A program made the translations under genes and the position numbers. From positions 1 through 28,339 of the forward strand of contig JBGPQP010000012.1 of NCBI GenBank assembly GCA_041489155.1: a stretch of 28,339 bases of DNA. Reading direction: 5' to 3'. Under the pieces are notes generated by a model. It made no database searches and was not told the origin of the DNA. It worked only from the letters and a program-made list of their open reading frames with translations. Each line of letters opens with the position of its first letter. The stretch's first letter is position 1. This DNA comes from Candidatus Aenigmatarchaeota archaeon (GTDB lineage Archaea > Aenigmatarchaeota > Aenigmatarchaeia > QMZP01 > QMZT01). Shown in pieces: positions 8,550 through 28,339 of the stretch.

Positions 8550-9065
8550 ATGCATGGAAAGAAACCTGTGAAAGGCGCTTCGCAGATAATCTCGACCATA
8601 CTGCTGATAGGCATAGTCGTGCTCATGGCAGCGGTGATCGGGCCGTGGGTATTGAACCTCGCGACCACCGCTTCGCAGGGAGCGGGCAACGACGTGAACC
8701 AGGATCTCATCTGCCGGGGAACTGCATACGCGTTCGACAGCGACTACGGCAATTCGGGCGTCTCCTGGAGCTTCAACGACACGAACGGGACCATGAGCGT
8801 GAAAGTCATGAACACGGGCACGCAGAACCTGTACAACTTTTCCCTAGAGCTGACGCTGCAGACGGCGACGGGCACGAAGCTCATAATCTATCCGGACGTC
8901 AACATAACGTCAGAGACCCAGAAGACGAAAACCAACCCCCTGAAGCCCGGCTACGACTGGATAATCGACGCGGACGTCGGCAACATAAACAGCACGTGGT
9001 CCCTCATAAAGGTGAAGGTAATAAATGATGTCTGCCCGCGCGTCTCGCCGTCTGTCGAGCTCTAG
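8550..9065 (+). CDS. Archaeal type IV pilin (class III signal peptide)
   Basis: KKPVKG^ASQIISTILLIGIVVLMAAVI, Cys pair, VKVMNTG..NL and LKPG motifs typical of archaeal pilins. Confidence 0.85.
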   Translation: MHGKKPVKGASQIISTILLIGIVVLMAAVIGPWVLNLATTASQGAGNDVNQDLICRGTAYAFDSDYGNSGVSWSFNDTNGTMSVKVMNTGTQNLYNFSLELTLQTATGTKLIIYPDVNITSETQKTKTNPLKPGYDWIIDADVGNINSTWSLIKVKVINDVCPRVSPSVEL

Positions 9066-22613: not shown

Positions 22614-23915
22614 TCATAAAGCTATTCTCAGCCTGATATTTATCTTGCTCGCAAGGAATTCCTCGAGGTGGCCCTTGTCTTTTTTAATGCTGTGGGCTAT
22701 CTCCGCGCCGCTCTTCGCGGTTTTTTCAAGCTCGCTTTCCATCACGGTGATCTCGTGCCTGAGGTTCTCGATCTCCCTCTCCGCCTCGCTCCTCTTTTCC
22801 GGCACGTCGGACCTCTCGAACTTCGCCTTCTTCTCGGAGATCTCGCTTTCCAGGAACCTGTACTTGTCCGCGAGCTCCGGCAGGTAGTTGAGCTCGATCT
22901 TCTTCACCAGCTCCTCTATGCGCTCGCGCTCCTCGCTCTTGAGGTTGAGCGAACGGAGCCTCAGCAGCGCGTCCATTATCTTCGAGCCGCCCTGCTCCTG
23001 CAATAGAACCTTGAGCGGCGAGTGCGAGATGTCAGAATAGAGCGAAAGCTTCTCCTTTTCCATCGCTTCGCCTCCGCTAGCAGCGGCATGTTCGAGCTTC
23101 TTCATCGGCCTCTTTATGCCGGAGAGCTCGTCATTAAGCTTGTTGCCTATGTCACTCCTTTCTTTTTCCATCGACCTTATGCTGCCGTCGAGTTCGGCGT
23201 AGTGCCTGTATTTTTCCCCGGCGAGGAAGGCCTCCAGCTCCTTCGCCTTTGCGTCGATTTTCTCCTTCCTGTTCTTTATCTTTTCCGTAAGCAGCGAGGC
23301 CTGCGCCTCCAGATCCTTCGCCCTCCTGTCCAGCTCCAGGAGCCTTGACGCCTTTGACTTCGTTTCGCCGTCGAGCCACAGCGCGCTTCCATCAAGCATG
23401 GAAAGCAGCTGCTTCCTCGTTTCTTCCGTCTCCTTCAGCAGCTTCGTTATCCTCGAGGTATCGTGCCTGAAGTATTTGGAAAGAAGGATTGCCTGCTTGG
23501 GCGGGATGTGCATGAGCTCGTGCAGTATCTTCCCGGTCCCTGCGCAGAAGCCGGAAACCTCTGAGTAATTGAAAGCGTTAATCGCGGGCGGGTTGCCGAG
23601 CAGGGAAAGCGCCTTCCTGGCGTAGTTGTCCTTCACCATGTTAACGGGAGCGTAAATCTTCTCATGCGCCTCGAACTTCTTTTGCGTCAGCTCGGCGCTG
23701 ATTTTCCTTATCTCACCGAAGCCGTCGCTTATGTCGCGGTAAAGATTGTCGGCCTGCTTCCGCTCTTCGGTGATCTTCCTGGCCAGCTCCCTGTTCACCG
23801 CGTCGGCGACCTGGGATAGAGCGATTTCTTCTGCGGCTTCAGCTGGCGCAGTCTCATGCGCTATCGCTTCTTTCGTCTCTTTCTTGCCCTTCCTCAGGAA
23901 CCCAAAAAAACCCAT
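22614..23915 (-). CDS. Coiled-coil protein of unknown function
   Basis: 433 aa, MGFFGFLRK amphipathic N-terminus, long E/K heptads; TATA box at 23937-23943. Confidence 0.85.
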   Translation of the reverse strand: MGFFGFLRKGKKETKEAIAHETAPAEAAEEIALSQVADAVNRELARKITEERKQADNLYRDISDGFGEIRKISAELTQKKFEAHEKIYAPVNMVKDNYARKALSLLGNPPAINAFNYSEVSGFCAGTGKILHELMHIPPKQAILLSKYFRHDTSRITKLLKETEETRKQLLSMLDGSALWLDGETKSKASRLLELDRRAKDLEAQASLLTEKIKNRKEKIDAKAKELEAFLAGEKYRHYAELDGSIRSMEKERSDIGNKLNDELSGIKRPMKKLEHAAASGGEAMEKEKLSLYSDISHSPLKVLLQEQGGSKIMDALLRLRSLNLKSEERERIEELVKKIELNYLPELADKYRFLESEISEKKAKFERSDVPEKRSEAEREIENLRHEITVMESELEKTAKSGAEIAHSIKKDKGHLEEFLASKINIRLRIAL

Positions 23916-24009
23916 AAAGGTTTATTTGCAGGCGGATTTTAAAGGTTTGAGCTGGGTGACCACAAAAGATAAAAACGTGGTCACCTCCAGAACCATGCTG
24001 CAAAACCTT
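23888..24009 (+). repeat. Direct repeat copy A (left flank of AbiE module)
   Basis: 23888-23948 matches 25294-25354 at 51/61 nt ungapped; 23991-24009 matches 25406-25424 at 17/19. Confidence 0.88.
23955..23985. repeat. Perfect 9-bp inverted repeat
   Basis: GGTGACCAC-N13-GTGGTCACC. Confidence 0.7.
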
Positions 24010-24015
24010 TTTATG

Positions 24016-24060
24016 TGTGCTACACTAAAATTAATAATATGTTAATTTCGGTGTAGCGCA
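24016..24060. promoter_or_regulatory. Inverted-repeat operator upstream of AbiEi
   Basis: TGTGCTACACTAAAATTAA-N7-TTAATTTCGGTGTAGCGCA, 16/19 Watson-Crick pairs; AbiEi antitoxins are known to bind promoter inverted repeats. Confidence 0.7.
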
Positions 24061-24569
24061 TGAAAAGAGGCAAGACCCAAAAACGGATGAACGGTCTTTC
24101 AGGTAAAGAGATGGAGATGGTCTCATACCTTGAACTGGACAACAAAAGATTCTTCAGTCGTAACGATGTTGAAAGGTTTTTCGGAAGCAGAAACGAGATG
24201 AATGTCTACATGCATAAGCTGATGGAAAAGGGAAGGATTGTGAAAATTAACAGGGAAAAATACTACCTTGTTCCCATACAAGCCTACCATGGAAACTGGT
24301 CCGAGCATCCTTTCATATTAACCGATGAAATGTGCAATGGCAAGGGATATTGCATAGGCGGCAAGAGCGCAGCGCATTACTGGGGGCTCATAGAACAGAT
24401 ACCAGCGGAAACAGAGGTTTTCAGCATGACCAGGCAGGGAAATGTCGTATTTTTCGGCTTCACGATAAGGTTCAGGAGGGTCAGGAAGCTTCCGAAACAC
24501 ACGAAGATAATAATCCAAAGGCACAGCGCCCTTATAGCGACTAAGGAGGAGAGCCGTAAATGGAAATGA
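24060..24569 (+). CDS. AbiEi-family antitoxin / transcriptional regulator (type IV TA)
   Basis: N-terminal wHTH (L..KGRIVKINREKYYLVP), YCIGGKSAAHYWGLIEQIP; overlaps the toxin start. Confidence 0.85.
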   Translation: MKRGKTQKRMNGLSGKEMEMVSYLELDNKRFFSRNDVERFFGSRNEMNVYMHKLMEKGRIVKINREKYYLVPIQAYHGNWSEHPFILTDEMCNGKGYCIGGKSAAHYWGLIEQIPAETEVFSMTRQGNVVFFGFTIRFRRVRKLPKHTKIIIQRHSALIATKEESRKWK

Positions 24570-25288
24570 TTTCGGAGAATAAGCTGAGATATATAGCCGG
24601 CATGAAGGGGCTAAACCTTATTTACATAGAGAAGGACTACTTTCTGACGGTATTCCTTTATCTGACAAAGGGTATCAGAGGCATTTATCTCAAAGGCGGG
24701 ACAGCCCTGAACAAAATATTTTTAGACCATGCCAGGCTTTCCGAGGACCTCGACTTCGCCGCGGACAGGCCGGTCCGTGAAATAAGGAATGAACTCGAAA
24801 GGGTGGTCAAAAACAGCGGTTTCTTCACAAGGATCAGGGCCGACAAAACGACCAAAGATTTTGTCAGATATCTGATATATTACAGGAGCTATTTTCAGGC
24901 AGAATCCTTCATAATCGCCGACGTGAACCGCAAAGCTTCAATACATCTGAAGCCGGAAAAACGCAAAATGCCTAATTTTTACGGCTTGGATTTCAGCATA
25001 AGCACGCTGAATATCAGGGAGATAATCGCAGAAAAGGTAAGGGCGCTGATAACCAGAAACCAGCCCAGGGATTATTTTGACGCCTATTTCATACTAAGAA
25101 AGCATCACGTCGACATGAAACTTGTAAAAATGAAACTAAAGGAAGCGAAGGAAACGTTTGACACGAAAAGGATATTCAGAAATGCAAACAAAATCTATTC
25201 ACGCTGGGATTCCGACATCAGCCCACTCACGAACAAAAAGCTCGGCTATATGGAATGCATTAAAGCACTGAAAAATAAATTCGGTTGA
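24560..25288 (+). CDS. AbiEii/DUF1814-family nucleotidyltransferase toxin
   Basis: IEKDY, LKGGTALNK, RLSEDLDF, EKVRAL..R.QPRDYFD. Confidence 0.92.
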   Translation: MEMISENKLRYIAGMKGLNLIYIEKDYFLTVFLYLTKGIRGIYLKGGTALNKIFLDHARLSEDLDFAADRPVREIRNELERVVKNSGFFTRIRADKTTKDFVRYLIYYRSYFQAESFIIADVNRKASIHLKPEKRKMPNFYGLDFSISTLNIREIIAEKVRALITRNQPRDYFDAYFILRKHHVDMKLVKMKLKEAKETFDTKRIFRNANKIYSRWDSDISPLTNKKLGYMECIKALKNKFG

Positions 25289-25293
25289 CATCG

Positions 25294-25424
25294 CCTTCCT
25301 TAGGAACCCAAGAAAACCCATAGAGTTTTATTCGCATGGAGGTTTTAAAGTTTTAGGCCGATGGGGAAAACAACATCGTTTTTTATTTCTTTTGCGCGTA
25401 ATGTAAACCATGCTAAAAAACCTT
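25294..25424 (+). repeat. Direct repeat copy B (right flank of AbiE module), containing a remnant start of the 433-aa gene
   Basis: Minus strand reads ATG GGT TTT CTT GGG TTC CTA AGG AAG (MGFLGFLRK) from 25321 versus MGFFGFLRK from 23915, with the TATA box retained. Confidence 0.88.
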
Positions 25425-25754
25425 GGCAGATACTTTGACCTAGGCAGCGACGAAAAGCTGACAATAACGGGCGTAAGAACAGAGAAAATCGCAGAATACA
25501 GCACAAATCCTTTTTTGTTTGTTGCGGGCATTTTAAGAGGGCGACCTGCCATAGAACAACCCAAAGATGTTATGCATGTCAGCATCAAGGCAAAGAACGA
25601 TGCAGGAGAGCAATTCAGCAGGACTTACAGGTTCACGACGGACCGCTGGAAAAATTTTGTAGAAACGATGACGCACTGCGCGGAAGAAAATGCCAGTCTC
25701 TATCTTTATGTCGGAAAGAACAAGCTGCCCCGTTTACTGCCTTACATCGTTTGA
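25410..25754 (+). CDS. Hypothetical protein (ORFan)
   Basis: 114-aa ORF, T-rich TATA-like box about 25379-25386. Confidence 0.65.
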   Translation: MLKNLGRYFDLGSDEKLTITGVRTEKIAEYSTNPFLFVAGILRGRPAIEQPKDVMHVSIKAKNDAGEQFSRTYRFTTDRWKNFVETMTHCAEENASLYLYVGKNKLPRLLPYIV

Positions 25755-25784
25755 TTTTTAAAGCGCCGCTCCAATTTAAAAAAA

Positions 25785-26087
25785 TCACTGCCCCGCCAGA
25801 AAGCCGAAACCCTTGTAAAGCTGCCTGAGCTCTGACAGAATTCGCTTCTCCTCAGCCGCTGACGCGTCGCTGACTTCTATTTCATGGACGTTTTTCTCCC
25901 GCGATGCCCTGAGGTCGTATTTTATCTTAATCGAGCGGCTGCCAGGGCCGACCCCTTCCAGCACCCCGCCGCCCACGCGGGCGAGCCTCTCCGTGTTCCC
26001 AAAAACATAATCGCTAAGGGCCACCCCCAGCTGCGGGAAATCGCCCAAGCCAAGTTCAGGCGCATAAGCGAGCGAGAGCTTTTTCAT
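25785..26087 (-). CDS. Hypothetical protein
   Basis: 100-aa ORF with TTTTTAAAA about 21 nt upstream. Confidence 0.65.
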   Translation of the reverse strand: MKKLSLAYAPELGLGDFPQLGVALSDYVFGNTERLARVGGGVLEGVGPGSRSIKIKYDLRASREKNVHEIEVSDASAAEEKRILSELRQLYKGFGFLAGQ

Positions 26088-26136
26088 GATAAGTGCTTTT
26101 GGGTTTAGTTTTAAAAACGGAAGGTGCGGTTAGGCA

Positions 26137-26171
26137 TTCAAATTCTCCTGCCACACGCCGAACGCCTTCTT
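26137..26171 (-). repeat. Direct repeat copy C: remnant 3' end of a protein-coding gene
   Basis: 32/35 identical to 27367-27401; minus strand reads KKAFGVWQENLNA*. Confidence 0.88.
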
Positions 26172-26186
26172 GGGCGAAGCGAATCT

Positions 26187-26663
26187 TCAGCCTGAAAGGT
26201 ATGCGTCGCAATGCCTGAAAAACAGCCTGGCGTGGTTTATCGACTCCTCGGCCGGGGCTTTATTCGCCTGGGGAATCGTGTTGTACGTGAAATCGCCGCG
26301 CTTCTTCCTTTCCCTTTTGTATACTTCGAGGAGCATCTCCGCCCTCACAATCAGTTCCCTGTATATGATGAGCAGCTTGGCGTCCAGAACGCCGGTGTCG
26401 ATGAACGCTTCTTTGAATTTTTCAAACGTTTTCTTGTGTATCTCGGGGGGCTTTGTCTCAATGTTCTTCGTCAGGAGCATGGCTTTTGCGCAGTAGAATA
26501 TCGCATAATATGCGTGCGATATGACCCCGCTGTAAAACGTGTCACTCTTTCCCAGCTTTAGCATGTCTTTCACTTTCTGCTGGCATGACGCCTCGAACAA
26601 TATTGACGCCGACTCTATTTCGCTTCTCGCCCTTCTGACGTACATGTCAGCCTTTGAATCCAT
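26187..26663 (-). CDS. HEPN domain protein (toxin of HEPN-MNT TA)
   Basis: AYYAIFYCAKAMLL..., H...F...F, RGDFTY (R-x4-Y variant); overlaps the MNT gene. Confidence 0.88.
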   Translation of the reverse strand: MDSKADMYVRRARSEIESASILFEASCQQKVKDMLKLGKSDTFYSGVISHAYYAIFYCAKAMLLTKNIETKPPEIHKKTFEKFKEAFIDTGVLDAKLLIIYRELIVRAEMLLEVYKRERKKRGDFTYNTIPQANKAPAEESINHARLFFRHCDAYLSG

Positions 26664-27321
26664 GCCTCATCGCCTCGAACAATATCCTGTAATATGGCTC
26701 CGCGCCGTATATAATGACGTGCTTTCTCGCAAGCTCCTTCCCGTAATTGAACCCGCCGTTCGTCAGCATCAGGTAAAACTCTTCGCGCGTGAATACGAAG
26801 CCATGGGTCTCCGGTATCATAAGTTCGCCTTCCTTCAGCGCGATTTCATACTCGGTCTTGGGTTCGCCGTCCGGTATAATTATTGCAACATCCACGTCAG
26901 AAGCCGGCTTTTGCTTCCCTTCAGCGTAGCTTCCGCCGACGATGAGGCTGAAGAACGGACTCTTTATCTTTTCCATTATCCTGGCTATGTTTTTCACCGG
27001 AAGGTCGCTCCTTTCCTTCGCCGCCAGCGATTCGAGAAAGGCAAGATAAATGATGTTGGAACCGTTTTCATAGTTGATAAAATACGTGTTGGTATTGCCT
27101 TTCCTTTTTTCCTCAAGTATTCCAAGCGAGGCGAATTTTTTCAGCGCATCGAAAACATAGTGATGCGACCTGTTTTCAGTAATCCGTTTTATTTCGGTTA
27201 TGGTGAATTCCCTCCACGGCTCCTTCACGAACGGCCTCAGCAGAAGAAGCTCGTTTTTCACCAGCCCCCTCGCCAGCCCCGCCAGTCTCGCCAGTCCACT
27301 TTTATGGATAGTTCTGTCCAT
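26647..27321 (-). CDS. wHTH-fused minimal nucleotidyltransferase (MNT antitoxin)
   Basis: N-terminal wHTH (FTITEIKR...VFDALKKF...GILEEKRKG), GGSYAEG....SDVDV; GTG at 27261 is an alternative start. Confidence 0.88.
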   Translation of the reverse strand: MDRTIHKSGLARLAGLARGLVKNELLLLRPFVKEPWREFTITEIKRITENRSHHYVFDALKKFASLGILEEKRKGNTNTYFINYENGSNIIYLAFLESLAAKERSDLPVKNIARIMEKIKSPFFSLIVGGSYAEGKQKPASDVDVAIIIPDGEPKTEYEIALKEGELMIPETHGFVFTREEFYLMLTNGGFNYGKELARKHVIIYGAEPYYRILFEAMRHGFKG

Positions 27322-27335
27322 ATTAATGGATAGTT
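27294..27335. promoter_or_regulatory. Tandem palindromic operator over the MNT start
   Basis: GTCCACTTTTATGGATAGTT and GTCCATATTAATGGATAGTT (17/20, 22-bp period), each containing TCCA-N6-TGGA. Confidence 0.65.
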
Positions 27336-27366
27336 AACAGTCTTTAAATACTTTAGCAGCATTCAC

Positions 27367-27401
27367 TTCACATTCTCCTGCCACACGCCGAAGGCCTTTT
27401 T
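27367..27401 (-). repeat. Direct repeat copy D: remnant 3' end of the same gene
   Basis: 21-nt identical core ATTCTCCTGCCACACGCCGAA; minus strand reads ...SKKTKKAFGVWQENVK*. Confidence 0.88.
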
Positions 27402-27476
27402 CGTCTTCTTACTCAGAATTGGGAAGGCGATGTTTAAACGCTGGTTTTTTAAAGTAATAAAATTATCATTAAGCGT

Positions 27477-28339
27477 ATGAATTTGTCAGAATTTAATGCT
27501 AGAATGAGAGCAGAAGTTGAAACATACAAACAAAGTTACAGAAAAGATAATTCTGCTTTCCTGATTTGGTTTTTAAGAAATATTTTCTGTCTTGATGAAC
27601 AAACTGCAGTAGATAGCGTTTGTGATGGTTCAAATGATAAAGGTATCGATGGAATTTGGGTTGATGATGAATCAGAGGAAATATATGTTTTTCAATCGAA
27701 ATTTTCTCCACAAAATAATCGTGATGAAGGGGATTCTGATATCAAAAAATTTGTTGGCGTTAAATCTTGGTTTTTAAAGGATCAGATTAGTAAATTGTTT
27801 GTTAGTTTAGCTAATGAAGAGCTAAAACAACTTTTAATTACCCTTAAAATTGAAGAAAAAATTGCTAGTCAATACTCTGTAATTTTAATTTATGTAACGA
27901 ATAAGATATTCGATAAAAATGCAAATGAATATATAGAAACTTGCTCAAATTTGGAGTTCTATGATAATAAATCATTGTTTGAAAAATATACGTATATAGT
28001 TGAGAAAGAAGTTAAAAATACACCAAAAATATTGAATGTTCCAAATACCACTGCAATTGAATATCAACAAGTCCCTGGAAATGAATCCATTGTCTTGCCC
28101 ATTCAGGCGAATCAACTGTTAAAATTAGATGGAATTCAAGATCATACATTATTTTCAAGAAACGTTCGATACTGGGCTGGACGAACAAGAGTAAATAAGG
28201 GGATTGCTGCTACAATCAAAGATTCTCATGAACATCAGAAGTTTTTCTTATATCATAATGGAGTTACAATCGTATGCAGCAATTATAAATTTGATAGGGA
28301 TAGAAAACAGATTAATTTAGAAGGATATCAAGTTATTAA
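27477..28339 (+). CDS. AIPR family protein (abortive infection/RM-associated), 3' partial; absent from the supplied ORF track
   Basis: My translation: MNLSEFNARM...DGSNDKGIDGIWVD...VFQSKF (nuclease-like N-domain)...LFSRNVRYWAG..RVNKGI..TI...FFLYHNGVTIVC...YQVI; very AT-rich. Confidence 0.85.
   Translation, partial: MNLSEFNARMRAEVETYKQSYRKDNSAFLIWFLRNIFCLDEQTAVDSVCDGSNDKGIDGIWVDDESEEIYVFQSKFSPQNNRDEGDSDIKKFVGVKSWFLKDQISKLFVSLANEELKQLLITLKIEEKIASQYSVILIYVTNKIFDKNANEYIETCSNLEFYDNKSLFEKYTYIVEKEVKNTPKILNVPNTTAIEYQQVPGNESIVLPIQANQLLKLDGIQDHTLFSRNVRYWAGRTRVNKGIAATIKDSHEHQKFFLYHNGVTIVCSNYKFDRDRKQINLEGYQVI

Follow-up and report, generated by a model that had tools for sequence, protein, structure and literature searches.

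Toxin–antitoxin cassettes in long target duplications: an archaeal form of a known, mechanistically unexplained gene mobility

Introduction

How toxin–antitoxin (TA) and defense genes move when no mobility gene accompanies them is a long-standing question. It is raised here by a stretch of DNA from Candidatus Aenigmatarchaeota archaeon, the whole of contig JBGPQP010000012.1 (C12, 28.3 kb) of assembly GCA_041489155.1, which we analyzed at full length and call the window; the genome is coded G000. Toward the right end of the window two TA modules, an abiEi–abiEii (AbiE) pair and a HEPN–MNT pair, each stand between direct repeats. To our knowledge, long target duplication around restriction–modification genes is the only named precedent, and it has stood without a mechanism for 25 years.

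Our analysis indicates that each TA pair sits in a long target duplication (35–130 nt), with host gene ends or promoters intact on the outside and dead stubs facing the cassette. We consider it somewhat better than an even bet, at a rough probability of 0.55, that the AbiE pair is a minimal selfish cassette, made of a promoter, an antitoxin and a toxin with no recombinase gene, which spreads by way of the duplicated host segments (anchors), and that the HEPN–MNT pair probably does likewise. Genomes, loci and contigs of G000 are designated below by the letters G, L and C, respectively.

Results

The AbiE pair lies between two copies of a divergent host control region

The features of the first module and of the host genes that it separates are as follows.

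22614..23915, minus strand: p433, an open reading frame (ORF) for a 433-amino-acid (aa) coiled-coil-like protein of no Pfam family, with its first nine codons inside repeat 1
23888..24009: repeat 1 copy 1 (T1), with the true p433 start, a TATA-like upstream region of donor type, a hairpin and a 5-codon p114 stub
23954..23986: hairpin inside T1, 10-bp stem and 13-nt loop, predicted fold −17.9 kcal/mol, z −3.4
24002..24059, plus strand: left end of the cassette core, an AT-rich promoter with a 7-nt inverted repeat, where homology to loci L117 and L118 starts
24060..24569, plus strand: abiEi, 169-aa antitoxin with a winged helix (PADLOC AbiEi, E 5e-17), 93.5% identical to the G004 protein
24560..25288, plus strand: abiEii, 242-aa nucleotidyltransferase toxin (PF08843, E 4e-24; PADLOC AbiEii, E 2e-35)
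25294..25424: repeat 1 copy 2 (T2), with the true p114 start, the upstream region in its native form and, moving along with the cassette, a p433 stub of nine codons
25410..25754, plus strand: p114, 114 aa, no family, the divergent partner of p433 where the site is uninterrupted

Repeat 1 (R1) consists of a core, in which 51 of 61 positions (84%) are identical between 23888–23948 and 25294–25354 (E 2e-15, pairwise search), and of a second, collinear block (23991–24009 and 25406–25424, 17/19 identical). Over their full lengths of 122 and 131 nt, T1 and T2 agree in 82 of 131 columns, their middles of 42 and 51 nt being unrelated. The two copies have diverged along the entire length; the longest exact runs are 10 nt and there is no identical core. 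R1 corresponds to the complete divergent control region between p433 and p114, together with nine p433 codons and about five p114 codons. T1 leaves p433 whole (ATG at 23915) and holds the p114 stub, whereas T2 leaves p114 whole (start at 25410) and holds the p433 stub. The insert itself measures 1.28 kb and contains the two TA genes only, and T2 begins at 25294, directly after the abiEii stop codon, which ends at 25288. Contigs assembled from an independent sample (run X2) span all four repeat junctions of the window with zero differing letters.

The two genes overlap by 10 nt. AbiEii scores 86 bits against PF08843 (cut-off 22.5) and is present in a single copy in the G000 assembly. AbiEi matches just positions 2–144 of the 252-position PADLOC profile; AbiEi proteins measure 160–175 aa across the whole DPANN clade, which suggests a truncated antitoxin architecture. 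The 7-nt inverted repeat in the abiEi promoter (24019–24025 and 24051–24057) is probably the AbiEi operator. The G+C content is 0.41–0.45 over the AbiE cassette, compared to 0.54–0.57 in the host genes to its left.

The hairpin stem of T1 is also found beside the p433 promoter in two relatives, G003 and G004, where the loop is inverted (31/35 in the inverted match to G003). In G003, and in copy 2 of G004, it comes after the 3′ end of another HEPN gene, with a loop inverted as compared with the cassette-borne copy (L015 8934–8967; L014 ~9010–9045). The hairpin may act as a recombination site, as a flip-flop palindrome or as a terminator.

Relatives hold one repeat copy, or a recently arrived cassette

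We searched 41 genomes (40 relatives plus G000) with a 7.3-kb region around the first module; four genomes of the genus were informative. G001 and G003 have thiC, thiE, thiM and p433 in the same order without AbiE, and carry one R1 copy each, so that relatives lacking the module hold one repeat copy and not two, as an original prediction made from the sequence of the window had required. G004 carries AbiE at the identical site, with both repeat copies and an identical junction between abiEii and the stub. The locus was not found in G002. p433 stands beside thiM in the relatives too, its orthologues in six relatives' loci being 32–51% identical, and its promoter is a hot spot in the genus: G003 and G004 carry another MNT–HEPN pair there.

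When G000 and G004 were compared in 100-nt bins, identity was 91–100% (80% in one bin) from 23900 to 25300 and collapsed after T2, whereas the 39 bins of host-gene flank to the left gave 51–91%, with a median of ~72%. At the protein level, AbiE is 93% identical between the two genomes, against 85% for ThiC, 67% for ThiE, 72% for ThiM and 45% for p433; for three of the four flanking genes the nearest relative of G000 is G001 rather than G004. Since the identity of the cassette far exceeds that of its flanks, the 1.4-kb unit must have moved between lineages far more recently than the species split. We conclude from these comparisons that the AbiE unit landed in, or was exchanged at, the same site in another species.

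The repeats themselves are mosaic, as read by eye from an alignment of nine sequences. The two G000 copies disagree at eight sites in the promoter half of R1; T2 equals G001 at 8/8 and T1 equals G004 at 7/8. The coding half has one informative site, at which the relation is reversed (T1 like G001, T2 like G004). In G004 the stub and the native p433 start differ at 5 of 28 sites, the stub resembling that of G000, and the 38-nt promoter halves are identical. This pattern of sites indicates that T1 joins a native left part to a donor right part and that T2 is the reverse, a reciprocal mosaic of the kind that would be expected of one crossover between a cassette-borne and a resident copy. The alignment firmly places the recombination breakpoints within the short repeats rather than in the long genes on either side.

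The cassette core and its junctions

On two metagenome contigs, L117 and L118, there are AbiE cassettes whose DNA is 78% and 72% identical, respectively, to that of the window cassette. The homology runs from window position 24000–24002 to the abiEii stop codon, and these limits define the cassette core as promoter, 7-nt inverted repeat, abiEi and abiEii only. Nothing more than this minimal unit of 1.3–1.6 kb is common to unrelated loci, at 80–94% identity; L050 and L063, for instance, have one cassette (94% identical) at two unrelated loci. L050 belongs to a genome (G374) labelled as a Chloroflexi bacterium metagenome-assembled genome, groups with Iainarchaeum relatives and has an archaeal AbiE cassette; the record is probably a mislabelled or misbinned contig.

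The first 8 nt of the core (AAAACCTT), whose end is defined from L117, recur at the native p114 start. Because AAAACCTT is common to the left end of the cassette and to the p114 start, the original left junction lies in microhomology. Similarly, 9 nt (AACAGGCAT) are common to the right end of the cassette, as defined from L063, and to the start of the L050 repeat. These two junctions, few as they are, point to a first insertion that may have been illegitimate and assisted by microhomology. Retro-insertion of the operon mRNA was ruled out, as the cassette carries its own promoter.

The HEPN–MNT pair lies between copies of a second repeat

The second module and its surroundings comprise the following features.

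25785..26087, minus strand: p100, ORF of 100 aa, no family
26137..26171: repeat 2 (D3) copy A, 15 nt past the HEPN stop; its minus strand reads ...SPKKAFGVWQENLNA-stop
26187..26663, minus strand: HEPN toxin gene, 158 aa (PF05168, E 3e-7)
26647..27321, minus strand: MNT antitoxin gene, 224 aa, winged-helix N-terminus and nucleotidyltransferase (PF01909, E 4e-8), overlapping the HEPN gene by 17 nt
27367..27401: D3 copy B, 45 nt upstream of the MNT start
27394..27452: host intergenic sequence, 81% identical to G004, where native DNA resumes right of the second module

The two D3 copies (26137–26171 and 27367–27401) are identical at 32 of 35 positions (91%), with E 1e-7 in a 12-kb chunk and 3e-5 genome-wide. 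They enclose an insert of 1.2 kb that consists of the two TA genes only. The HEPN stop codon occupies 26187–26189, and the edge of copy A falls at 26171, or at 26177 when judged against the relative G001. The original prediction had both modules bracketed by direct repeats that begin within 5–15 nt of the last stop codon, and this holds at both sites (25288 to 25294 for AbiE, 26187 to 26171 for HEPN).

It had also taken the repeats for host-gene termini, which is borne out for R1 with its p433 and p114 starts and less fully for D3. On the minus strand D3 closes a reading frame (...SPKKAFGVWQEN.. followed by a stop), but neither copy belongs to an intact gene in G000; what marks it as a gene 3′ end is the G001 genome, in which a 40-aa lipoprotein-like ORF finishes with the D3 sequence. 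The single D3 copy of G001 is 94% identical to copy A and 86% identical to copy B. A search of 91 genomes of the order with a 22-nt D3 pattern (at most two mismatches) gave matches in two of them, G000 with two copies and G001 with one. This distribution fits a target duplication that would have arisen around HEPN–MNT.

The neighborhood of D3 is rearranged, G001 having a 2-kb segment with an arsR-like regulator and a permease (identified by eye) between p100 and D3. The segment 25785–26177, which comprises p100, a 49-nt upstream region and D3 copy A, is 94–95% identical to G001, compared to ~75% in its flanks, and appears to be a second recently exchanged segment. We found no close relative of the HEPN–MNT pair of the window, the best being at 54% protein identity; its history is therefore not traceable as that of AbiE is. 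At L117 (2300–3782) a small ORF ending in the D3 motif is interrupted by an AbiE cassette, which has its own 39-nt target duplication and adjoins an MNT–HEPN pair.

The layout recurs across the AbiE family

An alignment of eight AbiEii proteins retrieved 32 loci from contigs of one genome per species, of which four were dropped for a flank shorter than 150 nt. The loci are mostly from DPANN archaea, with Aenigmatarchaeota, Iainarchaeota, Undinarchaeota, Micrarchaeota, Nanoarchaeota or Diapherotrites labels. At the remaining 28 we tested the 450 nt upstream of abiEi for similarity to the 450 nt downstream of abiEii, and set the threshold at 24.7 bits, the best score among 120 mismatched-flank controls. 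For relatives of the MNT–HEPN pair, 29 loci were fetched and 21 were usable.

AbiE loci, direct repeats: 19/28 above 24.7 bits; 13/28 at 38 bits or more
AbiE loci, inverted orientation: 1/28 above 24.7 bits
Pseudo-modules of the same size, 0.55–1 kb away at the same loci: 5/45 above 24.7 bits; 1/45 at 38 bits or more
Relatives of the window MNT–HEPN pair: 3/21 at 38 bits or more; 2/21 above their own null maximum of 46.4 bits

The difference between AbiE modules and pseudo-modules at the 38-bit level has a Fisher p of 5e-6. The repeats of the 13 strong loci measure 32–146 nt, start 8–235 nt after the abiEii match and end 51–205 nt before the abiEi match. Each locus has its own repeat sequence, and no k-mer was found in more than 3 of 14 repeats, the same as in upstream control segments.

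Several repeats are recognizable gene ends: the last 41 nt of a UPF0047 gene (G076, L051), the last 92 nt of a gene for a 190-aa protein, starting exactly at the stop codon (L069), and the first 23 codons of truD (L054). The truD-start repeat is single-copy in G400, G401 and G402, three relatives without the cassette.

ARAGORN detected a tRNA at 1 of 22 related loci, far from the cassette. At L042 an intron-containing tRNA (2760–2917; Rfam 43 bits, missed by ARAGORN) ends ~85 nt before the AbiE cassette, whose flanking repeat there is 22 nt long and marginal at 27 bits. L042 differs from L043 by 650 nt beside AbiE, a HAD-like gene by eye, with no flanking repeat.

Arrays of cassettes share one anchor

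The original prediction anticipated other cassettes with such flanks and their accretion into arrays. Both exist: cassettes with such flanks occur in the same genome (contig C2) and in other genomes, and there are arrays in which one anchor recurs between successive cassettes. When each strong repeat was used to search its own locus, four anchor copies were found in L045, L052 and L064 and three in L054; at L062 the third match is of merely 18 nt. The arrays, whose cargos are mostly TA pairs, read as follows.

L054: stub, AbiE, stub, AAA_14 ATPase, intact truD, a stub being a dead anchor copy
L052, first part: four 35-nt anchors ~1.5 kb apart; AbiE, then UPF0175 with a DUF3368-like gene
L052, second part: as third cargo an MNT gene with an ORF of HEPN size and a Fic fragment, the array ending at a PD-(D/E)XK-like gene (weak match)
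L064, anchors: four copies of a stretch from a gene for a secreted protein, comprising its upstream region and the start of its signal peptide
L064, cargos: AbiE; winged helix-turn-helix protein with a DUF6036 nucleotidyltransferase (weak); AbiEii with AbiEi_4 (weak); then the intact gene
L045 (G029): a pair made of a DUF5678 gene and an ORF outside any family, which by eye looks like a retropepsin-like protease, followed by AbiE

AAA_14 ATPase genes flank 7 of 34 AbiE loci (L045, L049, L054, L055, L057, L063 and L117), four of them called by Pfam together with DUF4143, that of L054 as AAA_14 only and two by tblastn only. The AAA_14 gene of L054 forms an anchored cassette of its own; the G000 assembly has no AAA_14 gene.

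We also scanned the G000 genome for direct repeats 300–6000 nt apart and removed repeats within genes and between paralogues by inspection. Seven pairs were left, two of them in the window and one each on C2, C23, C4, C15 and C31.

C2, 613–654 and 1804–1845 (L019/L103): 42-nt 3′ end of a gene for a 130-aa HTH_3 protein, around ORFs of 216, 68 and 64 aa of no family
C23, 6700–7802 (L028): 99-nt repeat (87%), the C-terminal half of a small XRE-type helix-turn-helix (HTH) protein, around a NYN-domain gene
C4, 73535–74600 (L022): 47-nt aminotransferase 3′ stub on the far side of a radical-SAM gene
C15, 3869–5971 (L026): 2-kb element with 35-nt AT-rich direct repeats (89%), a 192-aa tyrosine recombinase and two ORFs of no family
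C31: tandem duplication

At the C2 site G004 is empty and has one copy, and G001 has a different ORF, of 130 aa, between the same repeats. Relatives of the C2 cargo occur at other loci in G010, G023 and G029. At L082 a 137-nt XRE-HTH repeat brackets an MNT–HEPN pair; the XRE-HTH repeats of C23 and L082 could be anchors or could be paralogous antitoxin genes. Two tandem aminotransferase paralogues adjoin the C4 stub, which may be a paralogue remnant. The C15 element is a candidate small integrative element and the sole visible candidate for a recombinase acting in trans.

Gene content of the window

The G000 assembly amounts to 1.13 Mb in 39 contigs and is ~90% complete. Positions 1–23900 of the window hold housekeeping genes, among them those for an MC1 chromatin protein and the Asp- and Asn-tRNA synthetases, as well as thiL, thiC, thiE and thiM. 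We found no Pfam or PADLOC family for p114, p100 or p433. As originally predicted, the window lacks integrases, transposases and tRNAs: no tRNA was detected in it, and no integrase or transposase family among its 27 other ORFs or within the TA cassettes. The sole PF00589 match of the assembly is on C15.

The right edge of the window is taken up by one further gene.

27477..28337, plus strand: AIPR/AbiU-like abortive-infection gene, 30% G+C (PF10592, Mrr_cat, PADLOC AbiU), ending at the contig edge

This gene has an Mrr-type nuclease N-terminus and is the third foreign defense gene in the window; as it stands beside two TA modules, the region is a small defense island. The contig stops inside it, 0.9 kb beyond the second module, and neither the remainder of the gene nor an element past the contig end was found in the assembly.

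Discussion

Proposed spread by host recombination on duplicated anchors

We propose the following course of events for the AbiE cassette. The first entry would be an illegitimate, microhomology-assisted insertion that duplicates the target. The duplicated host segment could then serve as a portable homology arm, a step for which the mosaic repeats give part of the evidence, and general recombination of the host would produce a crossover between the copy carried by the cassette and the one resident in a related genome. The intermediate might be a circle popped out between the repeats or a linear fragment ending within them; since a linear fragment whose two ends fall within the repeats amounts to a circle opened in its homologous part, circles are not strictly required. 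The crossover would insert or exchange the cassette at the same site, restore the host genes and leave a stub. Repeated events at one anchor would build arrays, and recombination between anchors would delete or release cassettes, a loss that the TA pair would penalize. We infer that the enzyme is RadA-type homologous recombination, that DNA passes between cells and that these particular TA pairs are addictive.

Host recombination is favored by anchors that are locus-specific and have no common core, by breakpoints inside them, by arrays and varied cargos on single anchors and by the absence of a recombinase from all the cassettes.

Several observations weigh against this model. The original prediction had small circles enter by single crossover, and a single crossover would leave a reciprocal mosaic; the same mosaic would however be given equally by site-specific recombination at some fixed core close to the ATG of p433, or by a double crossover, with one breakpoint per repeat, that replaced an older resident cassette. 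Both inferred crossovers lie in the same ~12-nt zone, which hints at a preferred point, although the G004 breakpoint is bounded on one side only. No circle, excision or empty-site joint at the repeats was found in the assembled contigs of four public runs, which reproduced the sequence of the window, and every genome checked (G000 and five others) has at least one tyrosine recombinase. Homology cannot account for de novo entry at a new site, for which the microhomology evidence consists of two junctions. As the loci share ancestry (L041 is G004, and L042 and L043 are one syntenic site), the counts overstate independence, and with 3/21 and 2/21 for MNT–HEPN the layout is far from universal for TA modules. 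Finally, the 98-nt repeat of L063 is the cassette's own left end and not demonstrably a host target (in the relative of the L063 genome with the best flank match, synteny breaks directly after the left flanking gene), and the 39-nt duplication of L117, inside a small ORF, restores no gene.

Alternative explanations

The strongest competitor, which we nevertheless hold to be unlikely, takes the repeats for scars only. Each would be a one-off long target duplication left by illegitimate insertion, through microhomology-mediated end joining or template switching, and would play no part as an anchor; insertions that duplicate gene ends would be those that survive, later spread between species would be by ordinary double crossover through whatever flanking homology there is, and arrays would mark fragile hot spots. 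The microhomology at two junctions and the L117 duplication, which restores nothing, agree with this, as does the resemblance to the unexplained pattern around bacterial restriction–modification genes. The G000/G004 mosaic is also obtainable by double crossover into an occupied site, and the tiny intergenic space of 1-Mb genomes would make such a survivorship filter plausible. What speaks against scars is that arrays of three to four copies with similar boundaries need repeated independent duplications of the same 35–146 nt, that two cargos lie between the same C2 repeats in G000 and G001, that breakpoints fall inside the repeats and not in the much longer flanking genes, and that the junction from abiEii to the stub has been inherited unaltered across species.

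We give slightly less credence to a trans-acting integrase or Xer-type recombinase that is encoded elsewhere and uses the anchors as attachment sites, which would make the cassettes akin to cis-mobilizable elements (CIMEs), known to accrete beside integrative elements. A single enzyme of this kind would have to recognize dozens of unrelated sites. The repeats (32–146 nt) are locus-specific with no k-mer core above the control level; the R1 copies, moreover, are diverged throughout, with no exact run longer than 10 nt. Gene-end direct repeats and tandem accretion are nonetheless classic outcomes of integrases, one anchor can host different cargos, both inferred crossovers at the p433 site are near the ATG, and the AbiE cassette of L042 follows an intron-containing tRNA at a distance of ~85 nt. 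G000 does have a 192-aa tyrosine recombinase in the repeat-flanked 2-kb C15 element, but the AT-rich repeat of that element is unrelated to R1 and D3. PF00589 matches number 1–6 in each of the five other genomes tested; G372 and G373 have one match each, of a length that we take to be typical of chromosomal Xer.

That the modules are decayed remnants of larger integrase-bearing elements or proviruses, with the repeats as attL and attR and an addictive TA pair persisting, is very improbable. TA pairs often stabilize integrated elements, AbiE has reportedly been found on an integrative and conjugative element in one study, and the contig ends 0.9 kb past the second module within another foreign defense gene, all of which would suit a remnant. 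The repeats, however, hug a minimal operon, beginning 5 nt after the stop on one side, with the core starting at the promoter on the other; the same minimal 1.3–1.6-kb unit recurs at unrelated loci at 80–94% identity, the tight layout is found at 19/28 loci, and decay leaves the recent same-site transfer of just a 1.4-kb unit to another species unexplained. Chance similarity, paralogy or an assembly artefact, suggested by G000 repeat pairs that lie within one gene or between paralogues (C3, C8, C9, C14 and C16) and by the small XRE-type HTH genes, perhaps paralogues, that recur as apparent anchors (C23, L082), has a next to negligible probability and is contradicted for R1 and D3 by the E-values, the single copies in relatives, the controls and the X2 contigs, which match to the letter.

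Relation to known systems

The original prediction knew of no named system that fits this layout. In this it was wrong, as both insertion with long target duplication and Campbell-type insertion–duplication match the anatomy. Our literature search found nothing that describes the layout for TA modules, archaea or DPANN.

For long target duplication around restriction–modification genes an earlier account is reportedly that of Nobusato et al. in 2000. Insertion with long target duplication was defined for bacterial restriction–modification gene complexes by Furuta et al. 2010 (PMC2853133); the defining features are repeats longer than 30 bp, a single copy in an insert-free relative, an insert under 20 kb without another mobile-element gene, and homologues of restriction and modification genes. 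According to the same paper, the target often overlaps the 3′ end of a gene, repeat length depends on the site, and no archaeal case survived the screen. Its authors put forward double-strand breaks made by the restriction enzyme as a common cause, and propose that the complexes invade, amplify via the repeats and are then released, with no evidence given there for release.

Our cassettes resemble those inserts in being small, presumably addictive gene complexes without a mobility gene, flanked by target-duplicating repeats of more than 30 bp. Repeat length (122 and 131 nt for R1, 35 nt for D3), insert size and the lack of a mobility gene all agree with the definition, and single copies in relatives were found for R1 (G001, G003), for D3 (G001), at the C2 locus and at L054. 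The cargo, in contrast, is not a restriction and a modification gene: it consists of AbiEi/AbiEii and HEPN/MNT. The AbiE cargo is a type IV TA pair (HEPN–MNT and others come in addition), does not cut DNA and resides in DPANN archaea; because it does not cut DNA, breakage by a restriction enzyme cannot be the common cause here. Beyond the restriction–modification cases, we observe a family-wide layout (19/28 loci), arrays on one anchor and reciprocally mosaic repeats. Our results thus extend the phenomenon of long target duplication to non-nucleolytic TA cargo in archaea.

Campbell-type insertion–duplication is the entry of circular DNA with a homology segment into a chromosome by a single crossover. 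The arrangement of target copy, insert and target copy is the same here, the hybrid repeats are reciprocal as that model predicts, and the process would be reversible through the repeats. It is known as a plasmid and laboratory phenomenon, unlike the natural family of gene cassettes described here, in which the homology is 35–130 nt long at 76–99% identity and for which the assembled contigs of the public runs showed no circle joints.

Integrons and CIMEs likewise gather small cassettes, many of them TA pairs, one after another at one site. The arrays described here, in which small promoter-proximal cassettes are added serially at one site, are similar. They differ from integrons in having no integron integrase beside the array, no attC-like site and no common anchor core, the anchors being locus-specific pieces of host genes. 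As a test of a common attachment core, the repeats of the C15 integrase element proved unrelated to R1 and D3 (in an assembly ~90% complete). In the C-terminal displacement arrays of rhs and contact-dependent inhibition (CDI) genes, the same gene supplies the displaced ends, which are functional toxin tips. There too, gene-end stubs pile up beside an intact gene as modules arrive by recombination within the conserved portion; our duplicated ends, by contrast, are passive anchors for a cargo that has no relation to the gene they come from.

As to the modules themselves, in the HEPN–MNT pair the gene of the MNT nucleotidyltransferase (PF01909) is followed by an overlapping HEPN gene (PF05168), as in the known architecture. 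The window AbiE pair, as read from its genes, has a DUF1814/AbiEii nucleotidyltransferase toxin, an upstream, overlapping winged-helix abiEi and a promoter palindrome. In Dy et al. 2014 (PMC3985639), AbiE is described as a type IV TA and abortive-infection system with a bicistronic operon of overlapping abiEi and abiEii genes. The present pair is like the described AbiE in these respects and unlike it in its short AbiEi (169 aa) and its archaeal host.

Implications

Taken together, these results describe an archaeal TA form of a known, mechanistically unexplained gene mobility. Finding the same footprint around genes whose products leave DNA uncut moves the explanation away from the cargo and toward recombination by the host, and units made of an anchor and a cassette offer a concrete, testable model. 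More tentatively, and with the odds somewhat against it, DPANN archaea, and perhaps ultra-small prokaryotes, may possess an integron-like cassette system free of integrases and attC sites, in which units of a short host-gene end and a self-regulated TA or defense cargo would be inserted, stacked, exchanged between species and released purely by host recombination on anchors of 35–150 nt and retained by their TA genes. More boldly still, the AAA_14/DUF4143 ATPases beside AbiE loci might supply the breaks from which such events start. The layout provides a simple sequence signature for finding mobile defense genes in genomes of the candidate phyla radiation (CPR) and of DPANN, and suggests how organisms poor in classical mobile elements still assemble defense islands.

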